This document shows positions 8,134-56,058 of a stretch of 64,000 nt of DNA, one piece after another. The stretch comes from Campylobacterota bacterium (GTDB lineage: Bacteria > Campylobacterota > Campylobacteria > Campylobacterales > Sulfurovaceae), in the NCBI GenBank assembly GCA_011048515.1, contig DSDW01000134.1, positions 9,496-73,495 on the forward strand, read 5' to 3'. The translations under genes and the position numbers were made by a program. The stretch's first letter is position 1; each line of letters begins with the position of its first letter. A model generated the notes under the pieces. The model had not been told where the DNA came from. It made no database searches and saw only the letters and a list, made by a program, of their open reading frames with translations.

Positions 8134-8353
8134 AAAAAACTCCGTTTTTTAAATGAGGAGTGAGGAGTGCGCCCGAACGAAGTGACAAGTGCTCTTGGGG
8201 TAAGGAGTGAGGAGTGTCGGCATGTTTTGTGTGACAAAACGTTTAGTCTGTTTTTCTTCATGGTTTTCTTTATTCCATCCAAATGTATAAATGTATCGTA
8301 GAGGCTTTTTGCGAAAAAAGCTTACCATAACTCTTCACTCTTAATTCTTCACT
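8131..8353. mobile_element. empty heptamer-array element between mraY and murD
   Basis: Inverted arrays (TGAGGAG)n at 8153-8216 and ACTCTTC-type at 8330-8353. The reverse complement of 8330-8353 is identical to 45020-45043. Confidence 0.7.
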
Positions 8354-8373
8354 GTGAAGCATCGCTTCGGCTG

Positions 8374-16302: not shown

Positions 16303-16349
16303 TCCAAAGCGCAACAGACTCTCTGCTATCTGAAAAGTTAAACCAAAAA

Positions 16350-16367
16350 TTAACAGTGATTTAACAC
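16350..16367 (+). promoter_or_regulatory. putative OmpR-type box TTAACAG-N4-TTAACAC
   Basis: 11-bp-period direct repeat 45 bp upstream of the receptor start. Confidence 0.5.
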
Positions 16368-16411
16368 TTTTGTGTTTTACTTATAAGGATTTAAAATAAG
16401 GAGGATAAGAA

Positions 16412-18400: not shown

Positions 18401-18408
18401 GAGGGGAT

Positions 18409-19143: not shown

Positions 19144-19203
19144 ATGTTACACTACATCCCAAAAAAAAGCGGGTTTCTCTCCCCGCTCCCCAAAAGGTTC
19201 CCT

Positions 19204-19872: not shown

Positions 19873-19886
19873 GAGGAAGTTTCGGG

Positions 19887-20138
19887 ATGATTAAACAGTT
19901 TATCGGATCGGCAGCGCTTTTGATGCTGGTGACGGGTATGGCGGTCGGACATTATCTCTCTGCGGACAAAAGATCGCACAGGGAGGCTTTTTCTGGCGTG
20001 GTGGCGGTGACAGGCATTGTTTCCCCTTCGCTCAGTACGGCATTTTACGAACCGGCGTTTCTGGGTGAGAAGGTAGAGCATCCCGCCTCTCCGCAGATGC
20101 AGTCACTCAACAGGATGGAGTTTGTTTATGCTGAGTAG
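19887..20138 (+). CDS. small hypothetical membrane protein
   Basis: Fills the gap between coupled genes; N-terminal hydrophobic helix; start 19887 or GTG 19869. Confidence 0.6.
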   Translation: MIKQFIGSAALLMLVTGMAVGHYLSADKRSHREAFSGVVAVTGIVSPSLSTAFYEPAFLGEKVEHPASPQMQSLNRMEFVYAE

Positions 20139-21983: not shown

Positions 21984-22941
21984 GATCCTTCTAAGCAGCG
22001 AGGTGATCGTCTATCTACTCTCCGAAGCAGTGCTCTATCTGCTGCTCTTCATCGCAGCGATCGCCACCCTGGGAATATTGAAAGGGTGGAATTTTGACCG
22101 CTTTACCAAGAGGCAGTTTGACCTGGAGAACCGCTCCTACCTAGTGATGAGCATCATCTTTTTTGTGCTGGGGCTCAAAATGCTTCTGCTTCCCTATTTC
22201 GCCTATACGATCGATGCACTCTCCCTTCTGGTCCCCGGGGCAATGTGTGCCGCGGGTGTGATCGATGCGAATGACTACGGTTCTCCGCTGCTGCTTTTGA
22301 AGATCATCATCCTTTTTCTGAGCGGCCTCTGGCTGGGGATCAACCGTTTGGATCTTGAGGAGAAGCACTATCCCTATATGAAGCTGAAGTCCTGGTTTTA
22401 TCTTCTGCTCTTTGTGCTTCTGAGCGTAGAGATGGTTCTGGATATCCTCTACTTCAGCCACATCGAAACCACCAATCCGGTCAGCTGCTGTTCGGTGATT
22501 TTCGGAGAGATCGGCGGAAACAGCCTCCCTTTCGGGCTGGATATCCCCAAGCTTTTGATCCTCTTCTATCTGCTCTACGCGCTTCTGGTGCTGATGCTGT
22601 TCACGGGGCATTATCTGGTACGTATCGCAGCAAGCCTCTTCTTTGCGATGATCGCCTACTACAGCGTGGTCTACTTTTTCGGTACCTATATCTATGAGCT
22701 TCCTACCCACAGGTGCCCCTTCTGTATGCTGCAGGCGGAGTATCATTATGTAGGATATCTGCTCTGGGGAGTGCTCTTCTCGGGTACCTTCCTGGCGATA
22801 GAGAGCGCCGTGATGGAAGGAATTTTTGGCAGAGATGCCTTGAAGCTCAAGAAAATTTCGATAGGATTGCTGACGTTGTTTGTGCTGTTGTGCAGCAGTT
22901 ATGTCGGCTTGTATTATCTCAAGAATGGAGTGCTTCTATGA
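21976..22941 (+). CDS. conserved hypothetical polytopic membrane protein with Cys motifs
   Basis: About 8 TM; PGAMCAAG, VSCCS, HRCPFC; translationally coupled to neighbours. Confidence 0.75.
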   Translation: MNEILLSSEVIVYLLSEAVLYLLLFIAAIATLGILKGWNFDRFTKRQFDLENRSYLVMSIIFFVLGLKMLLLPYFAYTIDALSLLVPGAMCAAGVIDANDYGSPLLLLKIIILFLSGLWLGINRLDLEEKHYPYMKLKSWFYLLLFVLLSVEMVLDILYFSHIETTNPVSCCSVIFGEIGGNSLPFGLDIPKLLILFYLLYALLVLMLFTGHYLVRIAASLFFAMIAYYSVVYFFGTYIYELPTHRCPFCMLQAEYHYVGYLLWGVLFSGTFLAIESAVMEGIFGRDALKLKKISIGLLTLFVLLCSSYVGLYYLKNGVLL

Positions 22942-23441
22942 AAAAGTTTTTGATCAATCTTCTTACGTTCGGGATCGTGATCGCGATTATTGTCATCCTG
23001 CTGCTTTCTTTGGGGACGGATCAGGGCGCGCGCTATGTCTACAAGGGGAACACTGCCTATGAGCCTGTGGTGATCCAGCCCAAAGAGTACCAGTGTTCGG
23101 AGTGCAGTATGGATATTGAAGAGATGGAGTACAGTGCTCAGATCATTACGCCCGAAGGGGATACCTACTTCTTTGATGACATCGGGTGTGTGGTGGATTG
23201 GCTGGAGGGACGCAAGATAGAAACCCAAAAGGTCATTACCAGAACACTCGATACAGGCAACTGGGTCGATGTGGATAAAGCCTGGTATACCCGTACAGCC
23301 TCTTCTCCTATGGGGTACGGGTTTGCGGCGTATGAGCACAAGAAGGAGGGGCTGATCCCCTATGAAGAGATGAAACTCCTGATGCTCCAGGGTAAACATC
23401 TCCATGACCCGTTCGTCAAGAAGTCACTGTCGGGGCAATAA
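22938..23441 (+). CDS. membrane-anchored NosL-like protein
   Basis: N-terminal TM; CSECSM, YFFDDIGC, SPMGYGFAAY. Confidence 0.75.
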   Translation: MKKFLINLLTFGIVIAIIVILLLSLGTDQGARYVYKGNTAYEPVVIQPKEYQCSECSMDIEEMEYSAQIITPEGDTYFFDDIGCVVDWLEGRKIETQKVITRTLDTGNWVDVDKAWYTRTASSPMGYGFAAYEHKKEGLIPYEEMKLLMLQGKHLHDPFVKKSLSGQ

Positions 23442-23581
23442 CAGTGTAACTTTTTGATAACATCGTGTGGATTTCGGAAGAGATGGGGGAGACAATTTCC
23501 CCGTTTGCTTCTTCCCCTAACTCCTTTTTATCATTTTTTAGCTATACTTTGAGGTATTTTAAACTTATAAGGAGCAATCAA

Positions 23582-23812
23582 ATGGCACTATTTGATGACG
23601 TAAAAGAAGTGGTTGTTGAGCAACTGAATGTAAGTCCGGACGAGGTAAAAGAAGATTCCAAATTCGTTGAAGACCTTGGTGCTGACAGCCTTGACGTGGT
23701 AGAACTTGTTATGGCACTTGAAGAGAAGTTTGATATTGAAATTCCAGATGATCAGGCTGAAGCGATCGCTACAGTTGCTGATGCGATCAAGTTCATCGAG
23801 AGTGCACAGTAA
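23582..23812 (+). CDS. acpP: acyl carrier protein
   Basis: [20 protein letters not shown]; start ATG 23582 with AAGGAG. Confidence 0.97.
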
Positions 23813-23905
23813 GTCGTCCTTTCACCCCGGTTATGGGGTGAGTCTAGGATAGATCTTAGCATTTTCTGAAATGTTAATATATATCTTATTTGTACAGGAG
23901 AGATA

Positions 23906-25123
23906 GTGAGAAGAGTAGTAGTGACAGGTTTGGGGATGATCAACTCTCTGGGACTTGAAAAAGAGAGCGCATTTGCTGCAATAGTGGAGGGTAAATGTGG
24001 TATCAAGAATATCACATCGTTTGATACGGAGGGTCACTCAGTGAAAATTGCAGGAGAGATCACGGATTTTGATCCCTCTACTGTTTTGGATGCCAAAGAG
24101 CAAAAAAAGGCCGACAGATTTATCCAGCTCGGGATGAAAGCCGCGCAGGAAGCGATGGAAGATGCCAAGATCCCTGAGGGTACAGAGATGGAAAGATTCG
24201 GTATCGTGTCTGCGTCTGGTATCGGCGGTTTGCCGAATATCGAGAAGAACTCTGTGATCTGCGAAACCAAAGGATCGAGAAGAATCTCTCCGTTCTTCAT
24301 CCCTTCTTCTTTGGTGAATATGCTTGGCGGATTTATCTCTATCTATCAGGGGCTGAAAGGGCCTAACCTCTCGGCAGTTACGGCTTGCGCAGCAGGAACG
24401 CATGCGATCAACGAGGCTGCAAAATGCATTATGGTAGGAACGGCAGATAAAATGTTGGTCGTCGGTGCGGAAGCAGCGATCTGTCCTGTAGGTATCGGTG
24501 GATTTGCTGCAATGAAAGCACTCTCTACACGCAATGACGATCCTCAGCGTGCATCCAGACCATTTGATGCGGAGCGTGACGGGTTCATTATGGGCGAGGG
24601 AGCAGGTGCACTGGTTCTTGAGAGTTATGAGGATGCAGTAGCGCGCGGCGCGACGATCTATGCAGAGCTTATAGGATTTGGCGAGAGCGGGGATGCCAGC
24701 CACATCACTGCACCATCCATGGACGGCCCGCTCAGGGCAATGCAAATGGCATACAAAATGGCAGGAGAACCGAAAATTGATTATGTCAATGCACACGGTA
24801 CATCGACACCGGCCAATGACAAGAATGAAACTGCTGCGCTCAAAGAACTCTTCGGCGGCAAAGAGAACTGTCCTCCGGTAAGTTCCATCAAAGGACAGAT
24901 CGGTCACTGTCTCGGTGCTGCAGGTGCGATAGAAGCGGTAACCTGTCTTATGGCAATGAGAGAAGGCGTACTTCCTCCGACGATCAACTATACGACCCCG
25001 GACGAGAACTGTGACCTTGACTATGTGCCAAATGAGGCAAGAAAAGCTGACCTGAACATCGTAATGAGTAACTCATTCGGTTTTGGCGGGACAAACGGCG
25101 TAGTGATCTTTAAAAAAGTATAA
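23906..25123 (+). CDS. fabF: beta-ketoacyl-ACP synthase II
   Basis: RRVVVTGLG, TACAAG, NAHGTST, KGQIGHCLGAAG, SNSFGFGG. Confidence 0.97.
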   Translation: MRRVVVTGLGMINSLGLEKESAFAAIVEGKCGIKNITSFDTEGHSVKIAGEITDFDPSTVLDAKEQKKADRFIQLGMKAAQEAMEDAKIPEGTEMERFGIVSASGIGGLPNIEKNSVICETKGSRRISPFFIPSSLVNMLGGFISIYQGLKGPNLSAVTACAAGTHAINEAAKCIMVGTADKMLVVGAEAAICPVGIGGFAAMKALSTRNDDPQRASRPFDAERDGFIMGEGAGALVLESYEDAVARGATIYAELIGFGESGDASHITAPSMDGPLRAMQMAYKMAGEPKIDYVNAHGTSTPANDKNETAALKELFGGKENCPPVSSIKGQIGHCLGAAGAIEAVTCLMAMREGVLPPTINYTTPDENCDLDYVPNEARKADLNIVMSNSFGFGGTNGVVIFKKV

Positions 25124-32566: not shown

Positions 32567-33347
32567 GGAACTGACCCATGCATTTCGCAAGCATAAAGGC
32601 GTATTGACGCAAGAGCAGTATGAGCATATTGCCATCAGGCATACGACACTGCTGGAGGACGCCGATACAATTTTTATCCTTCTTCAGGCATCAGGCTATC
32701 CTATTTCACAAAGAGAAGAGAACCTTTACCAGCTGGACACCTACTTTACGCCGTATTATGAACAGCGCTACTGTGTCGTAGATATCGAGACCAACGGGAG
32801 CAAGCCTGGAGATTCTCAGGTCATTGAGATCGGTGCCGTACTGGTTCAAAACGGTAAGATCATCGACCGTTTTGAAACCTTTGTGGAGTGTGCTTTTTTG
32901 CCGGAGTATATCACGAAGATCACAGGGATTGAACCCCAGGACCTGATCGGTGCTCCCAGCAGAAAAGAGGCATTGACCAAACTGCGCCACTTCATGGGAG
33001 ATGCGGTCTTTGTCGCACACAATGCCAACTTTGATTATAATTTTCTTGGTGCCTCTTTTGAACGTTTCGGACTTGGCAATATCGGCAACCCGAAACTCTG
33101 TACGATCGATCTTGCCAGACGTACCTTCGAGTGCGAACGCTACGGTCTGTCGTATCTGATAGACTTTCTGGGAATTGATATGGCAACCCACCACAGGGCC
33201 TACAGCGATGCCTACTGCGCCTATCAGGTGATGAGAAAGAGTTTTATGACTGTACCTGAGTATGTCAGAAGTGCGGATGACCTGATCGTTTTTTCAACTT
33301 CCAGCAGGAAAGAGAGAAAAAAGCAGGGAGTAAGTAGCAGGGAGTAG
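32550..33347 (+). CDS. DEDDh 3'-5' exonuclease (DNA polymerase III epsilon-like)
   Basis: VDIETNG, VAHNANFD, HHRAYSDA. Confidence 0.9.
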   Translation: MQKVFEELTHAFRKHKGVLTQEQYEHIAIRHTTLLEDADTIFILLQASGYPISQREENLYQLDTYFTPYYEQRYCVVDIETNGSKPGDSQVIEIGAVLVQNGKIIDRFETFVECAFLPEYITKITGIEPQDLIGAPSRKEALTKLRHFMGDAVFVAHNANFDYNFLGASFERFGLGNIGNPKLCTIDLARRTFECERYGLSYLIDFLGIDMATHHRAYSDAYCAYQVMRKSFMTVPEYVRSADDLIVFSTSSRKERKKQGVSSRE

Positions 33348-33608
33348 GGAGCAGGTTAGGTAAGCATTTTTTAGAAAATGCTTTTATTTTAAGGTTTTGT
33401 TCATGTAATCCATGAAAAATTGCTACCGTGTGCCTACACGGCTTCGCTTCGCTACGACTTCGAGCTTACAAAAGCAAAGCTGTTTGCTTTTGCTTAACAG
33501 CTCTCACAGTTCCGTCGCTAAGATCGTGAAACTGTTCACGATCTTTATACGCTCCTCATCTGCTACCTACTTCCTTTTTACTTTTTACTTTTTACTTTTT
33601 ACTTTTTA
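33322..33608. mobile_element. empty heptamer-array element at a convergent junction
   Basis: AGCAGGG AGTAAGT AGCAGGG AGTAGGG AGCAGGT-TAGGTAAGC plus hairpin at left; (CTTTTTA)x5 at 33574-33608; several perfect internal stems. Confidence 0.65.
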
Positions 33609-34245
33609 AAAGGTGATGCAAAAAGAGTATCTGTGCAAAAACAGGGGCAAAGAGATTGAGGATCGGGATATAGTTGAAGAGCGATCCGATCATTGCGATG
33701 AGTGTGGATCGTCTGCTTTTCGTTTTGAGCATATTTTTATCCGTGATAAAAAGGGAGCCGACATCATAGACCGTCGGGTCTTTGAGCAGGATAGACCAGA
33801 GATAGAGCATCACGATTTGACCGATGAAGGGTATAAAAAGCAGCGGAAACAGCAGGATAAAGAGCAGCAGGAAAAGAGCGCTTGACTTTACCGTGACAAG
33901 GAGGGAGGTCATGATATCGGCACTTCCCGTGATCGGGGTAGCGGGGTAGTGTTTTTTTGTCAGTGCGATCAGGAGTTTTTCGCTCATGAGCGCAGTAAAG
34001 AGCGATACCATGAGGATAAAAAGGGTATATCCTATGAGCAGAGAGGCCAGAGAGGTGACAGCGGCAGTGAGCCACTCCCACGGTATCCAGCTCGCATAGA
34101 GGGTGGTCAATCCAAAGAGCAGGTCCCAGAAGAGCCAGCTCAGGATCAGGGTACTTGCCAGCGAGAGTAGGGCGATTTTTGCCACAAAGAAAAGCACCGA
34201 AGGGCTGAGGATATCCTGGAGGCTCTTGGCAGCGATCTGTTTCAT
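33592..34245 (-). CDS. EI24/CysZ-like membrane protein
   Basis: Multi-TM; LFNYIPILNLFAPVF C-terminal motif. Confidence 0.65.
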   Translation of the reverse strand: MKQIAAKSLQDILSPSVLFFVAKIALLSLASTLILSWLFWDLLFGLTTLYASWIPWEWLTAAVTSLASLLIGYTLFILMVSLFTALMSEKLLIALTKKHYPATPITGSADIMTSLLVTVKSSALFLLLFILLFPLLFIPFIGQIVMLYLWSILLKDPTVYDVGSLFITDKNMLKTKSRRSTLIAMIGSLFNYIPILNLFAPVFAQILFLHHLLKSKK

Positions 34246-36927: not shown

Positions 36928-37196
36928 AAAAACTCCGTTTTTAAATTAAAAATTAAAAGGTAAAAACTAACAATCCAGACTCGTTCCCACTCTCCTGAGT
37001 GGGAATGCATATACAACATTTCAGAGTAAAGGGAGTCTATTCACTTTTATGTCGTTTTGTACGCATTCCATATCAGGAGATATGGAACGAGGCGGTGGCT
37101 CCACTTTTTATGATTTGAAAGGATTATAGCAAAATAAAAGCACTTTGACAAAAGTGGATACTAAAGTTTTTAATTTTTAATTTTTACTTGTTAATT
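36925..37196. mobile_element. empty heptamer-array element containing an inverted REP doublet
   Basis: ATTAAAA ATTAAAA GGTAAAA at 36945-36965; inverse array at 37165-37196; REP hairpins at 36980-37008 and 37063-37091. Confidence 0.65.
36980..37091. repeat. REP doublet (REPIN-like)
   Basis: CTCGTTCCCACTCTCCTGAGTGGGAATGC and an inverted copy CTCGTTCCATATCTCCTGATATGGAATGC with compensatory stem changes. Confidence 0.8.
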
Positions 37197-37207
37197 GATC
37201 AAAAAGC

Positions 37208-39181: not shown

Positions 39182-39202
39182 ATTCTCCCTTTCAAATTTA
39201 TA

Positions 39203-39721
39203 AGTAAAAATTAACAAGTAAAAAGTAAAAGTTTATGTAGATATTTTATTATACAACAGTTTTATTTTTGAGCCTTTTAAGACTGGATACAAGCAGACGG
39301 ATAATCTCTTTGATATCTTCTATAAGACTTTCAAACATTGCCTGCGTTATAAACTTGGTATCGTATAGTAAATTGATCCAATACTTTGTTTCATTTGCTT
39401 CTTTTAGACCTATGTTTAGTTTATTGATAAAGTCAGCATGAGACTGTGCGAACTCGGACTCAGATATCAATGCGCCGATCGATGTTCCTGACCGAAGAAT
39501 CTGTCTGCTTAATACATACTCTTTTTTCTCATTGTTGAGGTATTGAGACAGGTTTACTACTCTGATAGCAAATGCATAGGATTTAGAGTGCAATAAGTTC
39601 TCTTTTTTCATGTCAGAGTTTACCCATCTGTTATTTATTTATGAGTATTATAACGATAAAGGTTAAAAAGTGTTTTTAATTGTTACTTTTTACTTTTTAA
39701 TTTAAAAAACGGAGTTTTTTT
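39203..39721 (-). mobile_element. four-helix-bundle cassette bounded by inverted AGTAAAA-type heptamer arrays
   Basis: AGTAAAA ATTAACA AGTAAAA AGTAAAA at 39203-39230; inverse array at 39672-39702. Confidence 0.7.
39249..39611 (-). CDS. four helix bundle protein (TIGR02436; 23S rRNA IVP/Avd-like)
   Basis: QILRSGTSIGALISE...AQS..DFINKL...KEANETKYWI.LL family signature. Confidence 0.9.
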   Translation of the reverse strand: MKKENLLHSKSYAFAIRVVNLSQYLNNEKKEYVLSRQILRSGTSIGALISESEFAQSHADFINKLNIGLKEANETKYWINLLYDTKFITQAMFESLIEDIKEIIRLLVSSLKRLKNKTVV

Positions 39722-39940: not shown

Positions 39941-39951
39941 AGACTCTCTTT

Positions 39952-40078
39952 AATTAACAATGAATAAGTAATAATTAATAATGAAAGTATGTGTTGCACG
40001 CAACACTTTCATTAAGTAAAAGCACTTCAACGAAGTGCATACAAAACTTATTAATTATTCACTATTAATTATTTATTC
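39952..40078. mobile_element. empty AT-rich heptamer-array element
   Basis: AATTAAC AATGAAT AAGTAAT AATTAAT AATGAAA at left, inverse array 40046-40078, two internal hairpins (GTGTTGC/GCAACAC; GCACTTC/GAAGTGC). Confidence 0.6.
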
Positions 40079-40099
40079 AAAATAATCCAAAGGATTTTC

Positions 40100-41351: not shown

Positions 41352-41750
41352 CTATCTCGTTATTTTTTGGCCGCCGAAATCATAGCTTTTTGCCAAATGG
41401 CCGCCTACATAGTCGATATCCGCGCAGTAATCCGCAGCGGCACTGTTGGTGGTGACATTGAAATCCTCCCCGTTCACGGCATAGACGATGGTATAGCAGA
41501 CGACGCGGTCGCATGCATCGGAATGGTCTGTTTCGGTAAAGTCGATATGCTGGGCGGTATAGGCGTAGGCTGCATCCCTGATGCAGATTGCCATATTGGA
41601 TACATCGGCGCTCAGCTTGGCGTCATCACGCGTCACCGCCAGTTTTGAGATCGCCATGGAGGCAAGTATCCCTATGATGATGATCACAAAGATAAGTTCT
41701 ATGACTGTAAATCCGTTCCGAAGCCGTGAAGAAATAGCTACTGTTTTCAT
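41352..41750 (-). CDS. type IV pilin / pseudopilin
   Basis: Class III signal RNG|FTVIELIFVIIIIGIL. Confidence 0.88.
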   Translation of the reverse strand: MKTVAISSRLRNGFTVIELIFVIIIIGILASMAISKLAVTRDDAKLSADVSNMAICIRDAAYAYTAQHIDFTETDHSDACDRVVCYTIVYAVNGEDFNVTTNSAAADYCADIDYVGGHLAKSYDFGGQKITR

Positions 41751-41945
41751 CTTGAACGATACCTCTCATTGCTATGTGTTCATTGATCTCTCTTGTATAC
41801 TTATACTATAAATATTTCAAATTATATACAAATATTTTAAATTAAGCAAACCGAGGAGGATGTTTTATAAATTTGAAAGCTTCGGCATATTATAATTTGA
41901 CAGGCCGGTTATTGAATCGGTACTATTTTTTATCAGGAGTTAATC

Positions 41946-42467
41946 ATGACACAGACGAACATGAGACGCGGATTTACGATGATCGAATTGATCTTTGTTA
42001 TTGTAATTATCGGTATTTTGGCAGCGGTTGCTATTCCTAAACTGGCAGCAACAAGAGATGATGCAAAGATCTCTAACATTGTTTCAAATACAAGAACAGC
42101 ATTAGGGGATATGAAAGCATTCTATACATCACAAGGTAATACAGTATGGAAAGATGCTGCTACTTTGATTGATACAATTACAGATGTACCATTTGAAACA
42201 GCTTGTGGTACGACAGCGATTGGAACAAAAGCAACATCTGCAGCAGGTAAGGATTTTGTGCTTTGTGATGAATCATCAGCTACTGGTGCAATTTGTATTA
42301 CAATGACGCTTACTGATGATGGGAATGTAACAGTTGAAGCAACAACTGCAGCTACACCAATATGTAAAGGCGTATTAAGTGATCCGGCGATCCAAGGGAT
42401 TGTAGGTGGTACTACTGCAACTTCTAGCAAAGTACATCAACTTGGCGGTATAGGCGTAGAAAGATAA
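41946..42467 (+). CDS. type IV pilin (probable major pilin)
   Basis: RRG|FTMIELIFVIVIIGILAAVAIPK; strong AGGAG RBS; downstream hairpin; AT-rich codons. Confidence 0.9.
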   Translation: MTQTNMRRGFTMIELIFVIVIIGILAAVAIPKLAATRDDAKISNIVSNTRTALGDMKAFYTSQGNTVWKDAATLIDTITDVPFETACGTTAIGTKATSAAGKDFVLCDESSATGAICITMTLTDDGNVTVEATTAATPICKGVLSDPAIQGIVGGTTATSSKVHQLGGIGVER

Positions 42468-42479
42468 ACTCTTATGCCC

Positions 42480-42505
42480 TGTCCCATATCTTCGTATATG
42501 GGACA
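42480..42505 (+). terminator. probable terminator after the pilin gene
   Basis: TGTCCCATAT/ATATGGGACA stem followed by TTT. Confidence 0.6.
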
Positions 42506-42680
42506 TTTCTCCTCCATCTCTAAAATTCATTTTTCGTAACCTTCAATCACTCTTTCCTAAAATTTCCGAAATCTATCCCTGCTACAAAACGCTAATGTTC
42601 TGAGTGCACAACCTATATACTTTGACAAAGAATATGCTATACTTTATAAAAGATAAAGAATACGCCCTAAAGGATAAAAG

Positions 42681-43139
42681 ATGGTTGGAATGGCAAAATG
42701 CAGAAAGGCATTTACAATGGTGGAGCTGGTGTTTGTGATCGTCGTGATAGGGATCCTGGCAGCGATCGCGATACCGAAACTTGCGGTGACAAGGGATGAT
42801 GCGATCATCACCAAAGCGATCAACACGGTAGCTGCCGTTAGAAGTGCCATTGCAACGGAACGTTCAAAAAATATACTCATGGGCAATTACGATGACTTCA
42901 ACAAAACATCGATCGGCTATACTGCCAATCAGGTCTTTACGGGGATGCTTGAGTATCCGGTCGAGAGGTGTACGGGGAGCGAAAAGGATTGTTGGGTGGT
43001 GGGAGGTTCGGATAGCCAGCCTACCTATACCTTCAGGGGTCCTACGGGGGATGTGATCTATACCTACAAAAACAAAAAATTTGTTTGTACTTCCACCGAA
43101 GCGGTCTGTAAAGTGTATGATGACCATCATGTCGATTGA
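42681..43139 (+). CDS. type IV pilin / pseudopilin
   Basis: RKA|FTMVELVFVIVVIGILAAIAIPK. Confidence 0.88.
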   Translation: MVGMAKCRKAFTMVELVFVIVVIGILAAIAIPKLAVTRDDAIITKAINTVAAVRSAIATERSKNILMGNYDDFNKTSIGYTANQVFTGMLEYPVERCTGSEKDCWVVGGSDSQPTYTFRGPTGDVIYTYKNKKFVCTSTEAVCKVYDDHHVD

Positions 43140-45010
43140 TTTTTGATAAAAAAGCTTTTGTGTACTATTATCACGTTGCATTATTAAAAACGCATAGCCC
43201 TGTTTTTACATACGCTTCGACTACCAGGTATGAGATCGGAGCGGTTGTTTCTGTCCCGGTCAAATCTCTGGATAAAGAGGGTGTGGTAGTTCGTGTATCA
43301 GAGAAACCGGAGTTTGAAACCCTTGAGATCAAATCCTCTTTGGGTCAATACTACTCTGGAATACAGCTGGAAACGGCGAAGTTCATCTCCGACTACTACT
43401 TCTCCTCTCTGGGCGAGGCACTCTCCCTTTTTATCCCGTACCGTCGTCATTCCGGGCTTGACCCGGAATCCACATTGCAGGATGAGGAAGTTGCATTACC
43501 TCAGTTAACAGAAGCGCAGCAAAATGCCTATAACGCGCTGCTGCACAAAGAGAGAGCACTCCTCTTCGGGGTCACGGGCGCGGGGAAAACGGAGATATTC
43601 ATCAGCTTAATGGCGAAGATGCTTGAGGAGGGGAAAAGCACGGTCTTTCTGATGCCGGAGATCTCGCTCACGCCCCAGATGGAGACGCGTCTGAAAAAGT
43701 ACTTCGGCGAGCGTGTGGCGATGTGGCACTCCAAGCTGACGAAGAAGAAAAAAGAGAGCATCCTGGAGGGGATCCACAGCGGCGGGATACGCATCGTGGC
43801 GGGCGCGCGCTCGGCGCTCTTTGTCCCGCTGCAGGACCTCGGGCTGATCATCGTGGACGAAGAGCATGACGACAGCTACAAGGCGATGACACGGCCGCGC
43901 TACCATGCCAGGGATGTCGCGGTGCTGATGGGGCAGAAGCTCGGGGCAAAAGTGCTCCTGGCCTCTGCGACGCCGAGCATGGGTTCTTATACAAAATATG
44001 ATGTGGTCAAGCTGGACAGACCTTTCATTCAGACAGCGAAACGCTACACCTTTATCCCCGGCGATACGGTCAACACGACGATCCTGAAGGCGTTGAAAGA
44101 GAACTATCTCAAGGGCGGGCAGTCCCTGCTTTTTCTGCCGACACGCGGCAACTTCAAATACCTCTACTGTGAAAAGTGCGGCAAGACGCACCTCTGCCCT
44201 TTCTGTTCTGTCGGCATGGCGCTGCACCGCAACCACAGGCACCTGAAGTGCCACTACTGCAACTACACCGAAGCGATCCGTGACAGCTGCAGCTACTGCG
44301 GGCATACGCCGCTGAGAAGCGAACGCATGGGTACGCAGGAGGCGGTAGAGGTGATAGGCGCGGCGATCGAGGGGATCAAAGTAGAGAAGTTCGACAGGGA
44401 CAGCATCACCACGGCAAACAAGCTCAAGCAGGCATTGCAGCGTTTCGAGAAGAAGGAGAGCGACCTGTTGCTGGGCACGCAGATGCTCTCCAAGGGGCAT
44501 GACTACGCCGATATCACACTCTCCGTGATCATGGGGCTGGACCATATCCTTGGGCTGGCGGACTACCGCGCCAGAGAGCGGGCGATGAGCCTTTTCTTCC
44601 AGATCGCGGGGCGCAGCGGACGCGCCAAAGCAGCCGAGGTGGTCGTGCAGACAGGGGACCAGGAGTTTTTCAAAAGCTGCCTGGGGGACTACGAGTCCTT
44701 CATAAAAGAGGAGCTCTCCTTTCTGGAGATGATGGGGTATCCGCCTTTTGCCTCGCTGGCACGGATACTGATCGCCCACAAAGATGAAAGCAAGGCAGCC
44801 AAGATCACACTCGATACCGTCGCCAGGCTCAAATCCTTCGAAGCGGTAGAGATCGTAGGGCACGGCAAAGCACCGGTAGAAAAGATCGCCAACAAGTACC
44901 GCTTCCACATCCTGCTGAGGGCAAAAAGCAGGGTGCCGCTGCTCAAAGCGCTCCATGCGGTGGACTGCCGGGAGATAGAGATCGATATGGACCCGGTCGA
45001 ATTTTCTTAG
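43136..45010 (+). CDS. priA: primosomal protein N' (helicase)
   Basis: GVTGAGKTE, MPEISLTPQ, VDEEHD, SATPS, 8-Cys zinc cluster, QMLSKGHD, QIAGRSGR. Confidence 0.97.
   Translation: MIFDKKAFVYYYHVALLKTHSPVFTYASTTRYEIGAVVSVPVKSLDKEGVVVRVSEKPEFETLEIKSSLGQYYSGIQLETAKFISDYYFSSLGEALSLFIPYRRHSGLDPESTLQDEEVALPQLTEAQQNAYNALLHKERALLFGVTGAGKTEIFISLMAKMLEEGKSTVFLMPEISLTPQMETRLKKYFGERVAMWHSKLTKKKKESILEGIHSGGIRIVAGARSALFVPLQDLGLIIVDEEHDDSYKAMTRPRYHARDVAVLMGQKLGAKVLLASATPSMGSYTKYDVVKLDRPFIQTAKRYTFIPGDTVNTTILKALKENYLKGGQSLLFLPTRGNFKYLYCEKCGKTHLCPFCSVGMALHRNHRHLKCHYCNYTEAIRDSCSYCGHTPLRSERMGTQEAVEVIGAAIEGIKVEKFDRDSITTANKLKQALQRFEKKESDLLLGTQMLSKGHDYADITLSVIMGLDHILGLADYRARERAMSLFFQIAGRSGRAKAAEVVVQTGDQEFFKSCLGDYESFIKEELSFLEMMGYPPFASLARILIAHKDESKAAKITLDTVARLKSFEAVEIVGHGKAPVEKIANKYRFHILLRAKSRVPLLKALHAVDCREIEIDMDPVEFS
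43446..43473 (+). repeat. REP-like palindrome in frame within priA
   Basis: GTCATTCCGGGCTTGACCCGGAATCCAC; stem ATTCCGGG/CCCGGAAT; encodes RHSGLDPES. Confidence 0.7.
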
Positions 45011-45019
45011 AAAATTCGA

Positions 45020-45510
45020 AGTGAAGAATTAAGAGTGAAGAGTGAAGAGTTTTGGTATGCTTTTCTTTTGAAAAGCTTTTTTTAAATCAGGAAATAAATG
45101 AGTATATTGGAAGAGAAAAGCTATGCTTTTTCGATTCGTATCGTGAAGTGTACACAGTATTTGCAAGATGATAAGAAAGAGTTTGTTCTAAGTAAACAGC
45201 TCATTCGTTCGGGTACAGCTGTGGGTGCATTGATCGCTGAGGCGAAATATGCACAATCGAAATCGGATTTTATCAATAAACTCTCAATAGCCGCCAAAGA
45301 AGGAAATGAGACCAAATATTGGCTGCGTCTTTTAAAAGATTGTAACTATCTTCAAGAAAAAAGTGCTATAAGTCTATTGGATGATATAGAGGGTCTCATC
45401 CGGATATTGGCATCAAGTATAAAAACTGCAAAAGAGAATAACTATGAAAAATAAAACACAAACGAAGTTTGTTTTCCAGCACTCTTCACTCTTCACTCTT
45501 CACTCTTCAT
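45020..45510 (+). mobile_element. four-helix-bundle cassette bounded by inverted AGTGAAG heptamer arrays
   Basis: AGTGAAG AATTAAG AGTGAAG AGTGAAG AGT at 45020-45050; (ACTCTTC)x4 at 45481-45508; a hairpin just inside each array. Confidence 0.8.
45098..45454 (+). CDS. four helix bundle protein (TIGR02436; 23S rRNA IVP/Avd-like)
   Basis: QLIRSGTAVGALIAEA..AQS..DFINKL.IA.KE.NETKYWL.LL; 60/110 identical to the 39249-39611 protein by hand alignment. Confidence 0.9.
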   Translation: MSILEEKSYAFSIRIVKCTQYLQDDKKEFVLSKQLIRSGTAVGALIAEAKYAQSKSDFINKLSIAAKEGNETKYWLRLLKDCNYLQEKSAISLLDDIEGLIRILASSIKTAKENNYEK

Positions 45511-45532
45511 TTTTCCCTCAAGGAGGAAAACT

Positions 45533-46594
45533 GTGAAAGAGAGATTTCCTACAAAGAAGATCTATGTCGGCAATGTAGCCGTAGGAGGGGATGCCCCGAT
45601 CTCGGTGCAGTCGATGACCTACAGTGATACGCATAATGTGGAGGCAACGGTCGAGCAGATCAACAGGCTGCACTTTGCTGGTGCGGATATCGTACGTGTG
45701 GCTGTGCCGAAGATGGAGGATGCCCTGGCGCTTGAGGAGATCAAGAAGCGTATCTCTCTGCCGCTGATCGCGGATATCCACTTTGACTACAGACTGGCGC
45801 TTGAAGCAGCCAAGTGGGTGGACTGCATCCGGTTCAACCCCGGGAATATCGGTGAGAAGAACCGTATCAGGGAGATCGTCAAAGCGTGCCAGGAGAGAAG
45901 CCTTCCGATCCGTGTGGGGGTCAATGCGGGAAGTCTGGAAAAAGAGTTTGAGGACCGGTACGGAGCGACCGCCGAGGGAATGGTGGCAAGCGCGGAGTAC
46001 AATATTAAGTTCCTTGAAGACCTCGGCTTTACCGATATCAAAGTCTCCCTCAAGGCCAGCGATGTGGACCGTACCGTGGAAGCCTACCGGATGCTTCGCC
46101 CCAAAAATAACTACCCTTTCCATCTCGGGGTGACGGAGGCCGGTACGGTCTTTCATGCCACGATCAAGTCCGCGATCGGGCTGGGGGCACTGCTGCTTGA
46201 CGGGATAGGGGATACCCTGCGTGTCTCGATCACCGGTGAGCTGGAAGAGGAGATCAGGGTAGGCAAAGCGATCCTTAAAGACAGCGGACGCGTGCAGGAG
46301 GGGCTCAACATCATCTCCTGTCCGACCTGCGGGCGGATAGAGGCGGACCTGGTCTCGGCCGTGGCAGAGGTGGAGAGGCGCACCGCGCATATCAAAACAC
46401 CGATGGATGTCTCCGTAATGGGATGCGTGGTCAACGCCATTGGCGAAGCCAAGCATGCCGATGTGGCGATCGCCTACGGAAAAGGTTCCGGACTCATTAT
46501 GGTAAAGGGTGAGGTGGTGGCACGCCTTCCCGAGAATGAACTAGTCGATAGATTTGTTGCTGAAGTAGAGAATTTTGCAAAAGAGAATAGCTGA
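45533..46594 (+). CDS. ispG: 4-hydroxy-3-methylbut-2-en-1-yl diphosphate synthase (flavodoxin)
   Basis: [47 protein letters not shown]. Confidence 0.97.
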
Positions 46595-49056
46595 TGGAAA
46601 ACATGTACAACCTCAATATCGAACGTGCGGTCCTCTCTGCGATCATCTTCGACCCGGAGATCTACGAAGAGGTCGCTGCCAAGCTAAAGCCGCATGACTT
46701 TTATCTCCCCTTCCATCAGCACCTATTTGCTGCGATGGAAGAGCTTTCGCACGAAGAGAAGCCGATCGATGAAGAGTTTTTGCGCAGCAAACTGAAAAAC
46801 AAAGGGAAGTTCGACGAAGTTGCGATGCTCGACCTGCTCTCGGTCAACCCTATCTCAAATACCGGAGCCTATCTTGCGGAGATCAAGGCAAAGTCCAGTA
46901 AGCGCGCACTTGCGACACTGGCTACGGAGATCAGAAAACGAACGATCGAAGATGACCTGCCTGCCGATGAGGTGATGAACCTCGTAGAAAAGAAGCTCTA
47001 TGAGATCACACAGAACAGCAGTAACGAGGATTTCCGGGAATCCAATGAAATTACTCTCTCTATGCTCGAGGAGATCAACCGCCTCAAGGCGATGGGCAAC
47101 TCCAAGCTGATCGGTACGGATACGGGATTTAAAAACCTCAATGATAAAACCTCGGGATTCGGAAAAGGGGACCTCGTCATTGTCGCTGCGAGGCCGGCGA
47201 TGGGGAAATGTCTGGGCAAAGGCACAAAAGTGCTGATGTATGATGGTTCGTTGAAAAATGTGGAAGATGTTGTGGTGGGGGATAAACTGATGGGGGATGA
47301 CTCTACGCCTCGCAATGTACTTTCTCTGGCCCGTGGACGAGAAGAGATGTATTGGGTCAGACAAAACAAAGGGGTGGACTACCGCGTCAATAAATCACAT
47401 ATCCTCTCTTTGAAACGTTCGCGCAACGAAGGCAGACATAAACATGGGGATGTGCTAAATATCGAAGTTTCAGACTACATTGAAAAGAGTGACAAGTTCA
47501 AAACAAACTACAAAGGATACAAAGTCAGTGTAGAGTTCGATGCAAAACCTTTGGAGATCGAACCCTACTTTTTGGGCTTGTGGCTGGGGGATGGCAGAAG
47601 CTCTGATGTGCGTATCGCTACGGAAGATGATGAGGTGGTAGAGTATCTGCAGGAGTATGCTTTTAGATTGGATAAAAAACTTCATCGTTATGAGGTAGAT
47701 GGCAAATGTACCATGTTCGGTATCACTAATATACAAAAAGAGGGTGCTTTGCGTGATGTAAGCCATTCACTGCAAGGAAAGCTCCGAACACTGGGTGTGA
47801 TAGATAACAAACATATTCCTCATGACTATCTCACGGGGAGCAAAGAACAAAGAGAGGCATTGCTTGCGGGATTGATAGATAGTGACGGCTATTATGATGA
47901 TAGATATCATGTGATGGAGATCGTTCAAAAAAATCAAGCACTTGCCCAGCAGATAAAGTTTTTGGCAGACTCTCTTGGTTTTAGAGTCTCTTTGGTGAAG
48001 AAAAAAGCGACCATCAAGTCCATGGGCTATGAGAGTGATGTATTTCGGGTGCGTATCGTAGGGAATTTGGAAACGATACCTACACGGATAGAAAGAAAAA
48101 AAGCAAGAGCATTGGCATCCAAAAGAGACCATCGTCATACCGGGATCAAAGTAGAATTTGATAAAGTAGATGACTATTATGGTTTTGTGTTGGATGGCAA
48201 CCATCTTTTTTTGCTGGAAGATATGACAGTGACGCACAACACGGCTTTCGTCCTCAATATAGCACTCAAAGCGATCGAACGGGACGAAGGGGTGGCATTT
48301 TTCTCACTGGAGATGCCTGCGGAGCAGCTGATGCTCAGAATGCTCTCTGCCAAGACCTCCATTCCCCTGCAGTCGCTCAGAGTGGGTGATCTGACCGATG
48401 AACAGTGGTCACAGCTCTCGGCAGCGACCGATGATATCTCCAAAAAGAGGCTTTTTGTGGATGACGGGGGACATGCGACGATCCATCAGGTAAGAAGCAA
48501 ATTGCGCAAGCTCAAGTCCAGGCACCCTGAGATCTCGATAGCGATCATCGACTACCTGCAGCTGATGAGCGGCGACGGGAAGGAAGGAAGACAGCAGGAG
48601 GTTTCCGAGATCTCAAGGGGGCTGAAACAGCTTGCCAGAGAACTGCAGATCCCGATCGTGGCACTTTCCCAGCTCAACCGCGGACTGGAGGCAAGGGAAA
48701 ACAAACGGCCGATGCTCTCCGACCTCCGTGAATCCGGGGCGATAGAACAGGATGCGGATATCATTCTCTTTGTCTACCGTGATGATGTCTACCGGGAAGC
48801 CAAAGAGAAAGAGAAAGAGATGAAGGCGAAAGCCGAAGGCAAGGAGTACAGTTCGGAGTTCAAAAAGAAGTCCGAAGAGGAGGCGGAGATCATCATCGGG
48901 AAACAGAGGAACGGTCCGACGGGTACGGTGGATCTGCTCTTTCAGAAAAGATTTACACGCTTTGTGGATGCCTCACACTCTCCGGCCTTTGAAGTGGTCT
49001 ATGAAGAGGGGAATATCCCGATGAATGAAGGGAATATCGAACTACCGAGGATCTAG
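46594..49056 (+). CDS. dnaB: replicative DNA helicase with intein
   Basis: IERAVLSA, ARPAMGK|intein|TAF, FSLEM, IDYLQL, SQLNR, DLRESGAIEQDAD, KQRNGPTG. Confidence 0.97.
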   Translation: MENMYNLNIERAVLSAIIFDPEIYEEVAAKLKPHDFYLPFHQHLFAAMEELSHEEKPIDEEFLRSKLKNKGKFDEVAMLDLLSVNPISNTGAYLAEIKAKSSKRALATLATEIRKRTIEDDLPADEVMNLVEKKLYEITQNSSNEDFRESNEITLSMLEEINRLKAMGNSKLIGTDTGFKNLNDKTSGFGKGDLVIVAARPAMGKCLGKGTKVLMYDGSLKNVEDVVVGDKLMGDDSTPRNVLSLARGREEMYWVRQNKGVDYRVNKSHILSLKRSRNEGRHKHGDVLNIEVSDYIEKSDKFKTNYKGYKVSVEFDAKPLEIEPYFLGLWLGDGRSSDVRIATEDDEVVEYLQEYAFRLDKKLHRYEVDGKCTMFGITNIQKEGALRDVSHSLQGKLRTLGVIDNKHIPHDYLTGSKEQREALLAGLIDSDGYYDDRYHVMEIVQKNQALAQQIKFLADSLGFRVSLVKKKATIKSMGYESDVFRVRIVGNLETIPTRIERKKARALASKRDHRHTGIKVEFDKVDDYYGFVLDGNHLFLLEDMTVTHNTAFVLNIALKAIERDEGVAFFSLEMPAEQLMLRMLSAKTSIPLQSLRVGDLTDEQWSQLSAATDDISKKRLFVDDGGHATIHQVRSKLRKLKSRHPEISIAIIDYLQLMSGDGKEGRQQEVSEISRGLKQLARELQIPIVALSQLNRGLEARENKRPMLSDLRESGAIEQDADIILFVYRDDVYREAKEKEKEMKAKAEGKEYSSEFKKKSEEEAEIIIGKQRNGPTGTVDLLFQKRFTRFVDASHSPAFEVVYEEGNIPMNEGNIELPRI
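47209..48240 (+). mobile_element. intein with LAGLIDADG homing endonuclease (344 aa) in the DnaB Walker A motif
   Basis: Starts CLGKGT, block B VNKSH, endonuclease blocks FLGLWLGDG and LLAGLIDSDG, ends VTHN followed by +1 Thr. Confidence 0.95.
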
Positions 49057-51183: not shown

Positions 51184-51200
51184 CGGGGATCCCTTGTTTT

Positions 51201-51340
51201 AGTGAATAGTGAATAGTGAGGAGTGAAGAGTGTCGGTATGCACTGCTTTGTAGTGCCTTTAGTAAATAAAAGAGAAACAAAGCTCATTTTCAAAAACTCC
51301 TCTTCATTAATCGCTAATTTCTAACACTTCACTCCTCGCT
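51201..51340. mobile_element. empty heptamer-array element
   Basis: AGTGAAT AGTGAAT AGTGAGG AGTGAAG AGT-GTCGGTATGC plus hairpin; degenerate inverse end CACTTCACTCCTCGCT. Confidence 0.65.
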
Positions 51341-54922: not shown

Positions 54923-55501
54923 ATGAAAAACGAGATCAAGTCTTTTCAGCTTCATCCACTTGAAGATCCGAAGTTCATCACCGCCTCTCTTGCTACCTAT
55001 CAGCAAAACGGTGTTGCAAAGAGCTGGGAGATCGTAGAGGCGCACGACAGCGTTGCGATCCTGATCTACCACACAACAAAAGATGCGTTTGTGCTGGTAC
55101 GGCAGTTCAGGCCGGCGGTCTATATCAACAATCTTGACGGACTCACGATCGAGCTCTGTGCAGGTATCGTGGATAAAAATCTTTCGTTGCTGCATATCGC
55201 ATCGGAGGAGATAGAAGAGGAGTGCGGTTACCGTATAGACGTGAACCAGCTGGAAAAGATCACCTCTTTTTACACTTCAGTGGGCTTTGCAGGCAGCAAG
55301 CAGATGCTCTACTATACAGAGGTGGACGAAAGCATAAAAGTCTCCGAAGGCGGAGGCGTGGATGATGAACAGATCGAAGTGGTCTATCTGCCGGTTTCAG
55401 AAGCCAACGCTTTTATCTATGATGAAAAAGTGGCAAAAACACCGGGGTTGATTTTTGCCTTTATGTGGTGGTTTGGGAATAAATTGGAAATTAGAAATTA
55501 A
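54923..55501 (+). CDS. NUDIX hydrolase (nucleoside diphosphate-sugar pyrophosphatase, NudF/NudK-like)
   Basis: LVRQFRPAV, ELCAGIVD...EEIEEECG Nudix box. Confidence 0.88.
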   Translation: MKNEIKSFQLHPLEDPKFITASLATYQQNGVAKSWEIVEAHDSVAILIYHTTKDAFVLVRQFRPAVYINNLDGLTIELCAGIVDKNLSLLHIASEEIEEECGYRIDVNQLEKITSFYTSVGFAGSKQMLYYTEVDESIKVSEGGGVDDEQIEVVYLPVSEANAFIYDEKVAKTPGLIFAFMWWFGNKLEIRN

Positions 55502-55577
55502 AAATTTTGGGCATTTCTTCAGGTTAAAGAGTAAAGAAGTGGGAATAAAAAATACTCCTAACTCCCCTAACTCTACT
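55482..55577. repeat. degenerate heptamer-array element at a convergent junction
   Basis: AATTGGA AATTAGA AATTAAA AAT (contains the Nudix stop) and ACTCCTA ACTCCCC TAACTCT ACT (contains the globin stop). Confidence 0.45.
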
Positions 55578-56058
55578 TGTCCTCTATCGCCTGTGTATAG
55601 GCTGCATAGTAGTGGCTTCCGTCAGTGAAACTGTTGACTGTCAGTTTTGAAAAGGCTTCAAGGTATTCCCAGAAATTATCTTTGAGCTCCTGAGGAATAT
55701 CAGTTTCCCGCAGGGCCGTCTCCATGCATCCCAGCCACTCGTAGCGGCTTTTTTCATAGATGGAAAACTCATCATGCAGGCGGATCATATACTCAGTGAG
55801 ATCCTGCCCCTCCGACTCGGTATGCACCTTCGGTCCGCCGCAGAGCTGGATAAAAAAGCGTGCATTTTTCTCTTTGACCTTTGCGAACTCCTCTTCATCC
55901 TGGGGGAAGAAGTTGGCGATGGCACTCTCATAGATCTCATCGTAAAAACGGTACATCAGGTCTTGCATCCCTTCATACCCCAATGCCTCGTAAAATGCCG
56001 GGTCAGGCATCCTGAAGTGTACGTTCTTGCCTTTGACTACAGGGGTTACATCATACAT
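55573..56058 (-). CDS. truncated hemoglobin (group II-like)
   Basis: YEALG...RFY, FFIQLCGGP, RLH proximal His, WLGCMETAL. Confidence 0.82.
   Translation of the reverse strand: MYDVTPVVKGKNVHFRMPDPAFYEALGYEGMQDLMYRFYDEIYESAIANFFPQDEEEFAKVKEKNARFFIQLCGGPKVHTESEGQDLTEYMIRLHDEFSIYEKSRYEWLGCMETALRETDIPQELKDNFWEYLEAFSKLTVNSFTDGSHYYAAYTQAIEDK

Follow-up and report, generated by a model that had tools for sequence, protein, structure and literature searches.

The spacer between priA and ispG in a 64-kb stretch of Sulfurovum DNA (here called the window, by which we mean the whole stretch) is filled by a 494-nt element, cassette 2, which is very probably a mobile cassette of the intervening sequence (IVS) type, a class named for its occurrence in bacterial rRNA genes. 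Cassette 2 consists of a single open reading frame (ORF) for a four-helix-bundle protein, enclosed by complementary arms that are built of tandem heptamers. Comparison of its sequence with those of related loci shows the element to be mobile DNA, as judged from empty sites, turnover at the same site, a copy at a new site, and a cassette that is more conserved than the genes of its host. We lean slightly toward a combined statement in which this mobile, operon-invading cassette is also processed by RNase III at the stem that its arms would form in mRNA; for the processing step by itself, which is argued by analogy, we regard the case as evenly balanced. The origin, mobility, and purpose of bacterial rRNA IVSs and of the conserved ORF that they carry have been debated since the early 1990s. 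An element of this type that also lives in ordinary operons allows empty, occupied, and freshly occupied sites to be compared base by base.

The cassette between priA and ispG

The two arms of cassette 2 lie on the plus strand at 45019..45055 and 45476..45512, are 37 nt long each and 86% complementary, and were the top pair returned by a repeat finder. Within this imperfect inverted repeat, 45031-45050 pairs perfectly with 45481-45500 over 20 bp, and three positions over 45019-45050 depart from Watson-Crick pairing, one of which is a G-U. The left arm is made up of about 4.5 heptamers (AGTGAAG, AATTAAG, AGTGAAG, AGTGAAG) followed by GTTTTGG, and the right arm begins with CCAGCAC and continues with about 4.5 CTTCACT heptamers. 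Because both arms are tandem heptamers, several shifted registers also pair. When the RNA was folded, the minimum free energy (MFE) structure and the centroid both enclosed the ORF by a stem of 10 + 20 + 4 bp (z = -4.9; none of 100 shuffles was equally stable). The 20-nt match is the longest perfect inverted repeat in the interval 44800-45700; in 300 dinucleotide shuffles, the longest repeat averaged 9.1 nt and never exceeded 13 nt. Across the window, the sole other perfect inverted repeat of at least 16 nt with a span of up to 700 nt (36943/37168) lies in another member of this family. It is hardly credible that the repeat is due to chance or to an assembly artifact, given the shuffles, the identical sequence in independent assemblies and runs, and the recurrence of the same design in about 75 other cassettes. 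Assemblies L164 and L165 match the window exactly over the regions compared.

Just inside each arm lies a small hairpin. On the left, GCTTTTC-TTTT-GAAAAGC (45059-45076, plus strand) is followed by a run of seven T residues; it was returned as a terminator-like match and, by its sequence, looks like an intrinsic terminator. On the right, a hairpin with an ACAAAC-GAA-GTTTGT core (45455..45475, plus strand) is followed on the minus strand by a T-rich run, which mirrors the left module. In the interval 45053..45083 (plus strand), a TGGTATGCT box that resembles an extended -10 element forms the inner, conserved part of the terminal repeat and overlaps the left inner hairpin with its T run. The left module recurs at 8326-8354 (minus strand) and in six related loci (L005, L047, L049, L015, L084, and L087; labels of this form denote the loci that were compared), and in metagenomes the read depth of the right arm is many times that of the flanks, indicating that it is multicopy. 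A prior reading of the window made from its sequence alone (the sequence-only reading) had described the 20-bp pairing, its extension to about 30 bp with three mismatches, the looping out of the whole ORF, and a small hairpin inside each arm, and all four descriptions held.

Both ends of the element are fitted to the neighboring genes. At the left junction, an inverted copy of the last priA codons follows the stop codon closely and pairs with them, forming a hairpin, TCGAATTTTCT-T-AGAAAATTCGA (44997..45019, plus strand; an 11-nt pair with 100% match), that holds the stop codon in its loop. On the outward side of the right arm, a TTTTCC/GGAAAA hairpin (45511..45535, plus strand) surrounds the Shine-Dalgarno (SD) sequence AAGGAGG (45520-45526), which is followed by the GTG start codon of ispG at 45533. 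SD-bearing hairpins stand at the matching place in other loci. Cassette 2 thus takes up the entire spacer from the priA stop to the ispG start, in sense orientation and with the ispG SD sequence included; its neighbors are PriA (43136-45010), GcpE/IspG (45533-46594), and DnaB (46594-49056). The sequence-only reading had placed a four-helix-bundle cassette in a priA-ispG-dnaB operon. The sense-oriented cassette of this family and its position in the gene cluster stand, and "operon" is a reasonable term for ispG-dnaB, where stop and start codons overlap, while the priA-ispG part of the operon is putative.

The ORF of the cassette (45098..45454, plus strand), which is preceded by an SD-like AGGAAAT (45088-45094), encodes a protein of 118 amino acids. 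Hidden Markov model (HMM) searches assign it to PF05635 (91.4 bits, with a cut-off of 33.8) and TIGR02436 (100.8 bits, with a cut-off of 24), and the closest solved structure is 2rld_A, a four-helix bundle (E = 4.3e-29 over residues 3-114). With respect to the family motif GxxRxxxSxxxNxxE, in the form in which PMC3936711 quotes it from Lin 2006 and Zhang 2014, the protein has R37 and E48, and the Ser position is Ala (Ser or Ala in Sulfurovum relatives). The family motif around the Asn reads R-S-x-x-S-I-G-A-N-I-x-E; this Asn is Leu (GALIAE) in almost all of the 14 Sulfurovum copies and is kept in the copies from Nostoc, Treponema, and Bernardetia (GANIRE). The protein alignment has 33 invariant columns, and dN/dS values of 0.06-0.25 among the Sulfurovum copies point to purifying selection on the four-helix-bundle protein. 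Pfam and TIGRFAM-type HMM searches gave no match to a transposase family for this ORF, the only one in the element. PADLOC defense-system models had 0 matches, and an Rfam search found no rRNA in the window.

Turnover and movement at two gene boundaries

We compared the priA-ispG boundary across 80 Sulfurovum-like loci, which were collected through IspG. The spacer is empty (50-101 nt) in about 26 loci; 12 loci have a four-helix-bundle cassette there, 3 have a cassette with an internal deletion, and 1 has a solo left arm. Four matched pairs of heptamers occur at this one boundary (GAGTGAA/TTCACTC, TAGTGAA/TTCACTA, GAGTGAG/CTCACTC, and GGTGAAT/ATTCACC). In the closest relatives, L001 and L002, identity to the window is 92-94% in the flanks but drops to 75-78% in the cassette ORF, and L001 additionally bears a remnant of a window-type left arm outside its GAGTGAG-type cassette; the cassette at this site has therefore been replaced. 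Other loci (L014, L054, L015, L027, and L089) form a decay series of cassettes, and empty alleles bear a -10-like box.

A second, freshly occupied site was found in the complete genome CP087124.1, which encodes the exact 118-amino-acid protein between ispG and dnaB and has another, more diverged copy in its priA-ispG spacer. The host genes of this genome are 86.5-88.3% identical to those of the window, compared to 96.6% for the ispG-dnaB cassette and 98.0% for its ORF. In the window, the ispG-dnaB site is empty and consists of a TGATG overlap (46592-46596), which survives to the right of the CP087124.1 insertion. The left junction of this insertion reads host GCGTTTG, then the inverted copy CAAACGC, and then the arm, whose first heptamer gives the ispG stop codon; the right junction reads TTTTCCATC, an SD-containing loop, and then host GATGGAAAA. 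A decayed element at the same boundary in L005 has a hairpin of the same kind, with the dnaB start ATGGACAA and an inverted copy of it, TTGTCCATC. The ispG-dnaB boundary is a second hot spot, with the full cassette in CP087124.1 (L166, 2916-3435) and ORF-less remnants or a solo arm in about 10 other species (the loci with such remnants or an arm downstream of ispG are L002, L005, L011, L015, L039, L049, L054, L058, L065, L086, and L089). The ispG stop codon is often supplied by the first heptamer of these remnants, and many relatives share the empty site of the window.

Compared with the window, the strains sampled by runs X5 and X7 have 17-23 differences across the final 430 nt of priA and no fewer than 13 in ispG, but 0 in 44996-45532. 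Because this difference-free tract includes the junction hairpin and the ispG SD sequence, the SD sequence travels with the cassette. No direct target-site duplication flanks the arms of cassette 2; in its place, the junctions carry inverted copies of the host flank. A priA junction hairpin of 9-14 bp is typical of the 18 arm-bearing loci (mean of 9.6 pairs, versus 4.3 in 52 arm-less loci), and its 3' half tracks synonymous differences in priA. Among distant cassettes, a stop-codon hairpin is present at the junction in only 3 of 28, and it is thus not universal. In run X3, a public metagenome, word depth over 44500-46000 was about 16,000-25,000× and equal for priA, the cassette, and ispG, and no cassette-skipping contigs were seen over this interval.

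The priA-ispG spacer is a general insertion hot spot, since loci other than those described above contain unrelated insertions, namely palindromic 'GTAGGGTG' repeats, a DUF4258/DUF2283 gene pair, or a pilin-like gene. The palindromic repeats, of a GTAGGGTG...CACCCTAC type, occupy the spacer in L004, L009, L013, L019, L021, L023, L040, L057, L064, and L069, and are also found at ispG-dnaB in L004, L006, L021, and L040. The DUF4258/DUF2283 module, a candidate toxin-antitoxin-like pair, is present in L039, L046, L058, and L080, and the pilin-like gene in L030.

Matched arms across phyla and their possible roles

A scan of metagenomes yielded 80 further cassettes, whose proteins are 53-83% identical. 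An inverted repeat of at least 13 nt flanks 75 of the 87 cassettes for which both flanks are available, and nearly all of these repeats are heptamer arrays. The arms stay complementary although the heptamer sequence varies between cassettes, with 27 heptamer types sharing the common core AGTGAAN. We assessed this by k-mers and by consensus heptamers. In 70 of 85 unique cassettes, at least one 10-mer is common to the left arm and the reverse complement of the right arm (mean of 6.1, versus 0.82 for nonself pairs), and the consensus heptamer is identical on both sides in 27 of 45 cassettes when arrays are found independently on each side (permutation mean of 3.3 and maximum of 11 of 10,000). Copies outside the Sulfurovum-like set are built the same way: the Nostoc punctiforme copy has GTCGGAG upstream and CTCCGAC downstream, the Treponema saccharophilum copy has GAAAGNG and CTCTCCG arrays, and the Bernardetia copy has (TTAGTGA)17 upstream and an ATCACTA-type array downstream, with recF 48 nt beyond. 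The design is found in four phyla, with the period of 7 kept while the heptamer sequence changes.

The four-helix-bundle gene is codirectional with both neighbors in 44 of 47 cassettes (44 versus 3) and in 24 of 27 distant, independent loci (24 versus 3), and the gaps to neighboring genes are 10-160 nt. Signature motifs of 16S and 23S rRNA were absent from the 160 related loci, except for one isolated match in L058. Two lines of argument were discarded. That the purine-rich arm always lies 5' of the ORF is not evidence of anything, since an inverted repeat reads alike on both strands. The idea that the period of 7 serves to place stop codons in three frames was likewise set aside: left arms close at least two frames in 63 of 65 cassettes, but permuted tandem heptamers of the same composition do so equally well, and frame closure is therefore a property of the arms and not a sign of selection. 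As a separate observation, on the Treponema saccharophilum plasmid pTS1 (L162, 1170-1480), a GAAAGNG array of about 240 nt abuts a complementary array upstream of the four-helix-bundle gene, giving a hairpin-forming block.

Duplexes that span about two helical turns or more are substrates of RNase III. The enzyme is expected in Sulfurovum, although its gene was not found in the DNA that was compared and a search of the loci for its signature gave no match. The precedent for processing is the 23S rRNA IVS of Coxiella burnetii, which shares its stem design and protein family with cassette 2. This IVS is 428 nt long and is closed by a 28-bp terminal stem that is cut midstem by RNase III, as established in vitro and by rapid amplification of cDNA ends; it contains a sense S23p (four-helix-bundle) ORF and two to three tandem GACAGAT heptamers in its 5' arm, with a strain-variable copy number (PMC4990558). 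The statement in the sequence-only reading that rRNA IVSs of this protein family are closed by a stem and excised by RNase III is borne out by this case. Cassette 2 resembles the rRNA IVSs of Coxiella burnetii, Leptospira, Xanthomonas, and Brucella in its PF05635 protein, in having a sense ORF in the loop, in size (494 versus 428 nt), in its complementary ends with a stem of about 28-37 bp, in its tandem-heptamer 5' arm, and in its sporadic, horizontally transferred distribution (PMC4990558). Unlike them, it sits between protein-coding genes, not in 16S rRNA or in helix 9, 25, or 45 of 23S rRNA, and it carries the SD sequence of the next gene, inner hairpins, and junction hairpins derived from the host flank. 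Its ORF is under strong purifying selection, whereas the Coxiella ORF is decaying, and cleavage by RNase III is proven for the rRNA elements and predicted for cassette 2. Cassette 2 is related to, and may work like, an ORF-bearing 23S rRNA IVS, but as a variant located outside an rRNA gene and not as a strict member of that class.

By analogy with the rRNA elements, read-through transcription from priA would allow the arms to form a duplex of >30 bp with the ORF looped out. RNase III would cut this duplex as it does in rRNA IVSs, thereby separating the priA mRNA, the cassette RNA, and the ispG-dnaB mRNA. After the cut, the priA mRNA would end in the stop-codon hairpin and the ispG-dnaB mRNA would retain its own SD sequence, so that the insertion would be nonpolar and tolerated in an essential gene cluster. 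The arms would probably also serve movement of the element at the DNA level. In CP087124.1, the essential gene dnaB lies directly behind the cassette, and its expression must therefore pass through the element or start within it; this copy can be regarded as a putative natural experiment on nonpolarity. RNA data came from assembled metatranscriptome contigs of nine runs (X14, X16, and X20-X25), along with DNA runs. Some contigs run from ispG across the left arm and inner hairpin to the start of the ORF, and others lead out of the ORF into the right arm, indicating that the cassette is transcribed in several environments. The contigs break at the repeated arms and are uninformative on cleavage, and differences in contig depth are confounded by paralogous cassettes. 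A 2-kb contig that spans the element ends in the dnaB junction and is therefore probably a chimera of two near-identical cassettes.

Several findings weigh against processing of the mRNA stem by RNase III. Among mismatches in 65 stems, read on the sense strand, G-U and A-C are equally frequent (43 versus 44); the lack of a G-U excess gives no specific sign of selection on a sense-strand RNA helix and means that a process at the DNA level could keep the arms complementary. An inward-facing, terminator-like hairpin with a T run lies just inside each arm, and many cassettes have a -10-like box, either TTTTnGnTAnAAT located 5-7 nt before the ATG or TGGTATGCT overlapping the hairpin. If these terminators and boxes are active, many transcripts may carry only one arm. 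A promoter scan gave no convincing sigma-70 match for the cassette ORF, and a promoter function for TGGTATGCT is a guess from its sequence. Some ORF-less remnants have nonmatching arms (L011 and L086 at ispG-dnaB), and a stem for RNase III offers no explanation for arrays with a period of 7 in every phylum. Finally, the strong purifying selection on the protein shows the element to be more than a neutral passenger.

The sequence-only reading had offered, as its alternative, that the ends are recombination substrates. The mobility described above gives this strong indirect support, at least as strong as that for mRNA processing. Taken as an exclusive account, it holds that the heptamer arms and the GGTATGC/inner-hairpin modules are terminal inverted repeats for a mobility machinery, which would recognize them as double-stranded DNA or as single-stranded hairpins, with RNA pairing incidental. 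It would fit the copy at a new site, the replacement of cassettes at one site, the younger age of the cassette relative to the host genes, and the balanced mismatches. It would also fit the layout of the ends: from the outside inward, each has a heptamer array, a GT.T.GGTATGC-like motif, a hairpin of 6-9 bp, and usually a T-rich run. The two ends share the conserved inner motif (GGTATGC/GCATACC), and the hairpin of each is compensated separately. Of 28 modules, 25 have a hairpin at the matching position, with about 20 stem sequences among them, and 19 have a U-rich tail. The order of variant heptamers is mirrored between the two arms in L103, L111, and L148, as they would be in true inverted duplicates; ORF-less derivatives abound, with no fewer than five in 64 kb; and the inverted host-flank copies at the junctions suggest a reaction at DNA ends. 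On the other hand, there is no transposase or recombinase in or next to the element, PADLOC found nothing, and the four-helix bundle has no known catalytic motif. A total of 27 heptamer types would be unusual for ends read by one sequence-specific enzyme, direct target-site duplications are missing, and the 24:3 co-orientation appears to exceed what replication-strand bias alone would produce. Moreover, pairing of the arms would still present a duplex of >30 bp to RNase III whenever a transcript contains both of them. We consider a role at the DNA level only to be rather improbable.

A second alternative is that the heptamer arrays are read by a protein, perhaps by a pentamer of the four-helix bundle with one heptamer per subunit, and serve as pads that regulate the neighbors in cis, at the level of translation or transcription, with arm pairing as a switch or by-product. 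This alone addresses the period of 7, which is kept across phyla when the sequence is not, and the AGTGAAN core in the Sulfurovum-like set is conserved beyond the needs of pairing. Purifying selection on the protein is in line with it, as are the homopentamers that relatives form according to Lin et al. 2006, as cited in PMC4990558. In the window, Y-rich heptamer arrays lie 15-40 nt upstream of at least eight start codons. In the literature, Beggiatoaceae, Cyanobacteria, and Bacteroidetes are described as having intergenic heptamer repeats shortly before start codons (PMC4679880), and Nostoc repeats are discussed with an "unidentified interacting partner" (bioRxiv 10.1101/2022.06.06.494920). 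However, coinheritance would account for the agreement between heptamer type and protein clade, protein binding is proposed here from sequence, and solo arrays may be mere decay products of cassettes, as in the series from L014 to L089 described above. We judge this alternative to be quite unlikely. Neither the pads nor the DNA ends contradict processing by RNase III.

Other small repetitive elements share individual traits with the cassettes, which resemble Correia elements and REP/RAYT systems in lifestyle and lack their sequence features. The Correia elements (Neisseria miniature insertion sequences) of Neisseria are small intergenic elements with terminal inverted repeats that are cotranscribed with their flanks, have stems cut by RNase III, and can have promoter or terminator activity. 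They lack an ORF, have inverted repeats that are conserved and 26 bp long, and duplicate a TA target, whereas the arms of the cassettes are variable, direct target duplications are lacking, and full copies encode a protein. In repetitive extragenic palindromic (REP) sequences and bacterial interspersed mosaic elements, with genes for the REP-associated tyrosine transposase (RAYT) that are flanked by inverted REPs (REPINs), a gene is bracketed by inverted hairpin modules and many gene-less doublets populate operon spacers; RAYT is an HUH/Y1 nuclease. In contrast, the cassette protein is a four-helix bundle without a known catalytic motif, and REPs are not tandem heptamers. Cassette 2 has the terminal inverted repeats, presence/absence polymorphism, and new-site copies of a terminal-inverted-repeat transposon or miniature inverted-repeat transposable element, but it has neither a transposase nor a direct target-site duplication. 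The Avd protein of diversity-generating retroelements is homologous in its four-helix-bundle fold and family, but the match to NF033474 is weak (20.1 bits, far below the equivalog cut-off of 80), and with priA, ispG, and dnaB as its neighbors the cassette is next to neither a reverse transcriptase nor template/variable repeats.

Intergenic heptamers of the TAACTGA type, mostly in forward orientation just upstream of start codons, are distributed in Beggiatoaceae, Cyanobacteria, and Bacteroidetes in a patchy way that suggests horizontal spread, and their function is unexplained (PMC4679880); the short tandemly repeated repetitive sequences of cyanobacteria belong to the same class of tandem 7-nt intergenic repeats (bioRxiv 10.1101/2022.06.06.494920). 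These reports describe direct arrays only, whereas the cassettes have inverted pairs around a four-helix-bundle gene or its remnants. PF05635 genes were already known outside rRNA, with 18 copies inside cas operons (PMC3936711). In the literature that we searched, no paper links heptamer repeats to four-helix-bundle genes, describes matched arms around them, documents mobility at operon boundaries, or proposes mRNA processing.

A bolder reading, which we regard as less likely than not, is that IVS proteins and tandem heptamer arrays belong together in a single, widespread mobile system. In it, each subunit of a pentamer may recognize one unit of the heptamer that accompanies the protein, and full cassettes would invade operon boundaries by an unusual DNA-end reaction that copies the host flank in inverted form. 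The rRNA IVSs would then be a special case, and decayed arms would be what is seen as intergenic heptamer repeats in Cyanobacteria, Bacteroidota, Beggiatoaceae, and Campylobacterota, which would provide a possible source for these puzzling repeats. With heptamer-built arms as a hallmark across phyla and a protein under selection, the idea of a "selfish IVS" becomes concrete. For annotation, a PF05635 gene that lies within a functional operon, for instance a cas locus (PMC3936711), is probably a passenger and not a member of that system.

Related elements and other features of the window

Apart from its ORF-less elements, the window contains one second full cassette. Cassette 1 (39190..39707, minus strand; ORF at 39249-39611) lies upstream of uvrB and encodes a paralogous four-helix-bundle protein of 120 amino acids with 54% identity. 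Its arms are built of a different heptamer (AAGTAAA/TTTACTT), still pair with each other, and enclose the ORF in both the MFE and centroid structures. An ORF-less remnant lies between mraY and murD (8147..8354, minus strand), with a left module almost identical to that of cassette 2 and a stub of the 3' end of the ORF. Because such stubs are kept in several ORF-less copies (e.g., L014, L054, L015, and 8147-8354), we conclude that these copies are decay products of full cassettes. Further ORF-less elements are found at 39942..40087 (AATTAAT/AGTGAAT-type arms and two inner hairpins), at 51195..51340 (TAGTGAA/GAGTGAG/GAGTGAA arms and a GTCGGTATGC-hairpin module), and at 33322..33610, where an AGCAGGG/AGTAGGG arm and a GGTAAGC hairpin face five copies of TTTTTAC, a heptamer of the cassette 1 type, on the right side. 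At 36930..37201, an AATTAAA/GTAAAAA-type arm pair surrounds an unrelated nested palindromic repeat.

Three different genes, with starts at 8133, 36926, and 39722, have a near-identical leader, TTTAAAAA(A)CGGAGTTTTT(T)ATG, right after a Y-rich heptamer arm. The SD sequence of this leader lies in the loop of an AAAAAC/GTTTTT hairpin, and at these starts an element end seems to supply the ribosome-binding site. Inside the murD ORF (6856-8133), the segment 7790-7890 on the minus strand has a run of three to four AGGGAGC heptamers, two small hairpins, and a CTTCACT-like stretch, all in frame. These features fall in an extra segment of about 25-30 amino acids that separates the N-terminal domain from the Mur_ligase_M domain (beginning at residue 118), and the segment may be an in-frame insertion of a minielement. 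At 55481-55585, an AAATTRG heptamer array precedes TTTTGGGCAT, and a CTAACTC-type run lies about 60 nt farther downstream; this is a possible further decayed element.

Features outside this family were also noted. The dnaB gene (46594-49056) contains an intein at about 47206-48140 with Hint and LAGLIDADG homing-endonuclease domains, and two kinds of selfish element, the DnaB intein and the cassette, thus lie within 2 kb. Just upstream of priA, the region 41352-43139 encodes three small genes, on both strands, with type IV pilin-like N termini (FTMIELIFVIVIIGILA; N_methyl motif). On the plus strand, 57059-57134 matches the c-di-GMP-I-GGC riboswitch aptamer RF03167, with 60.2 bits compared to a gathering score of 59.

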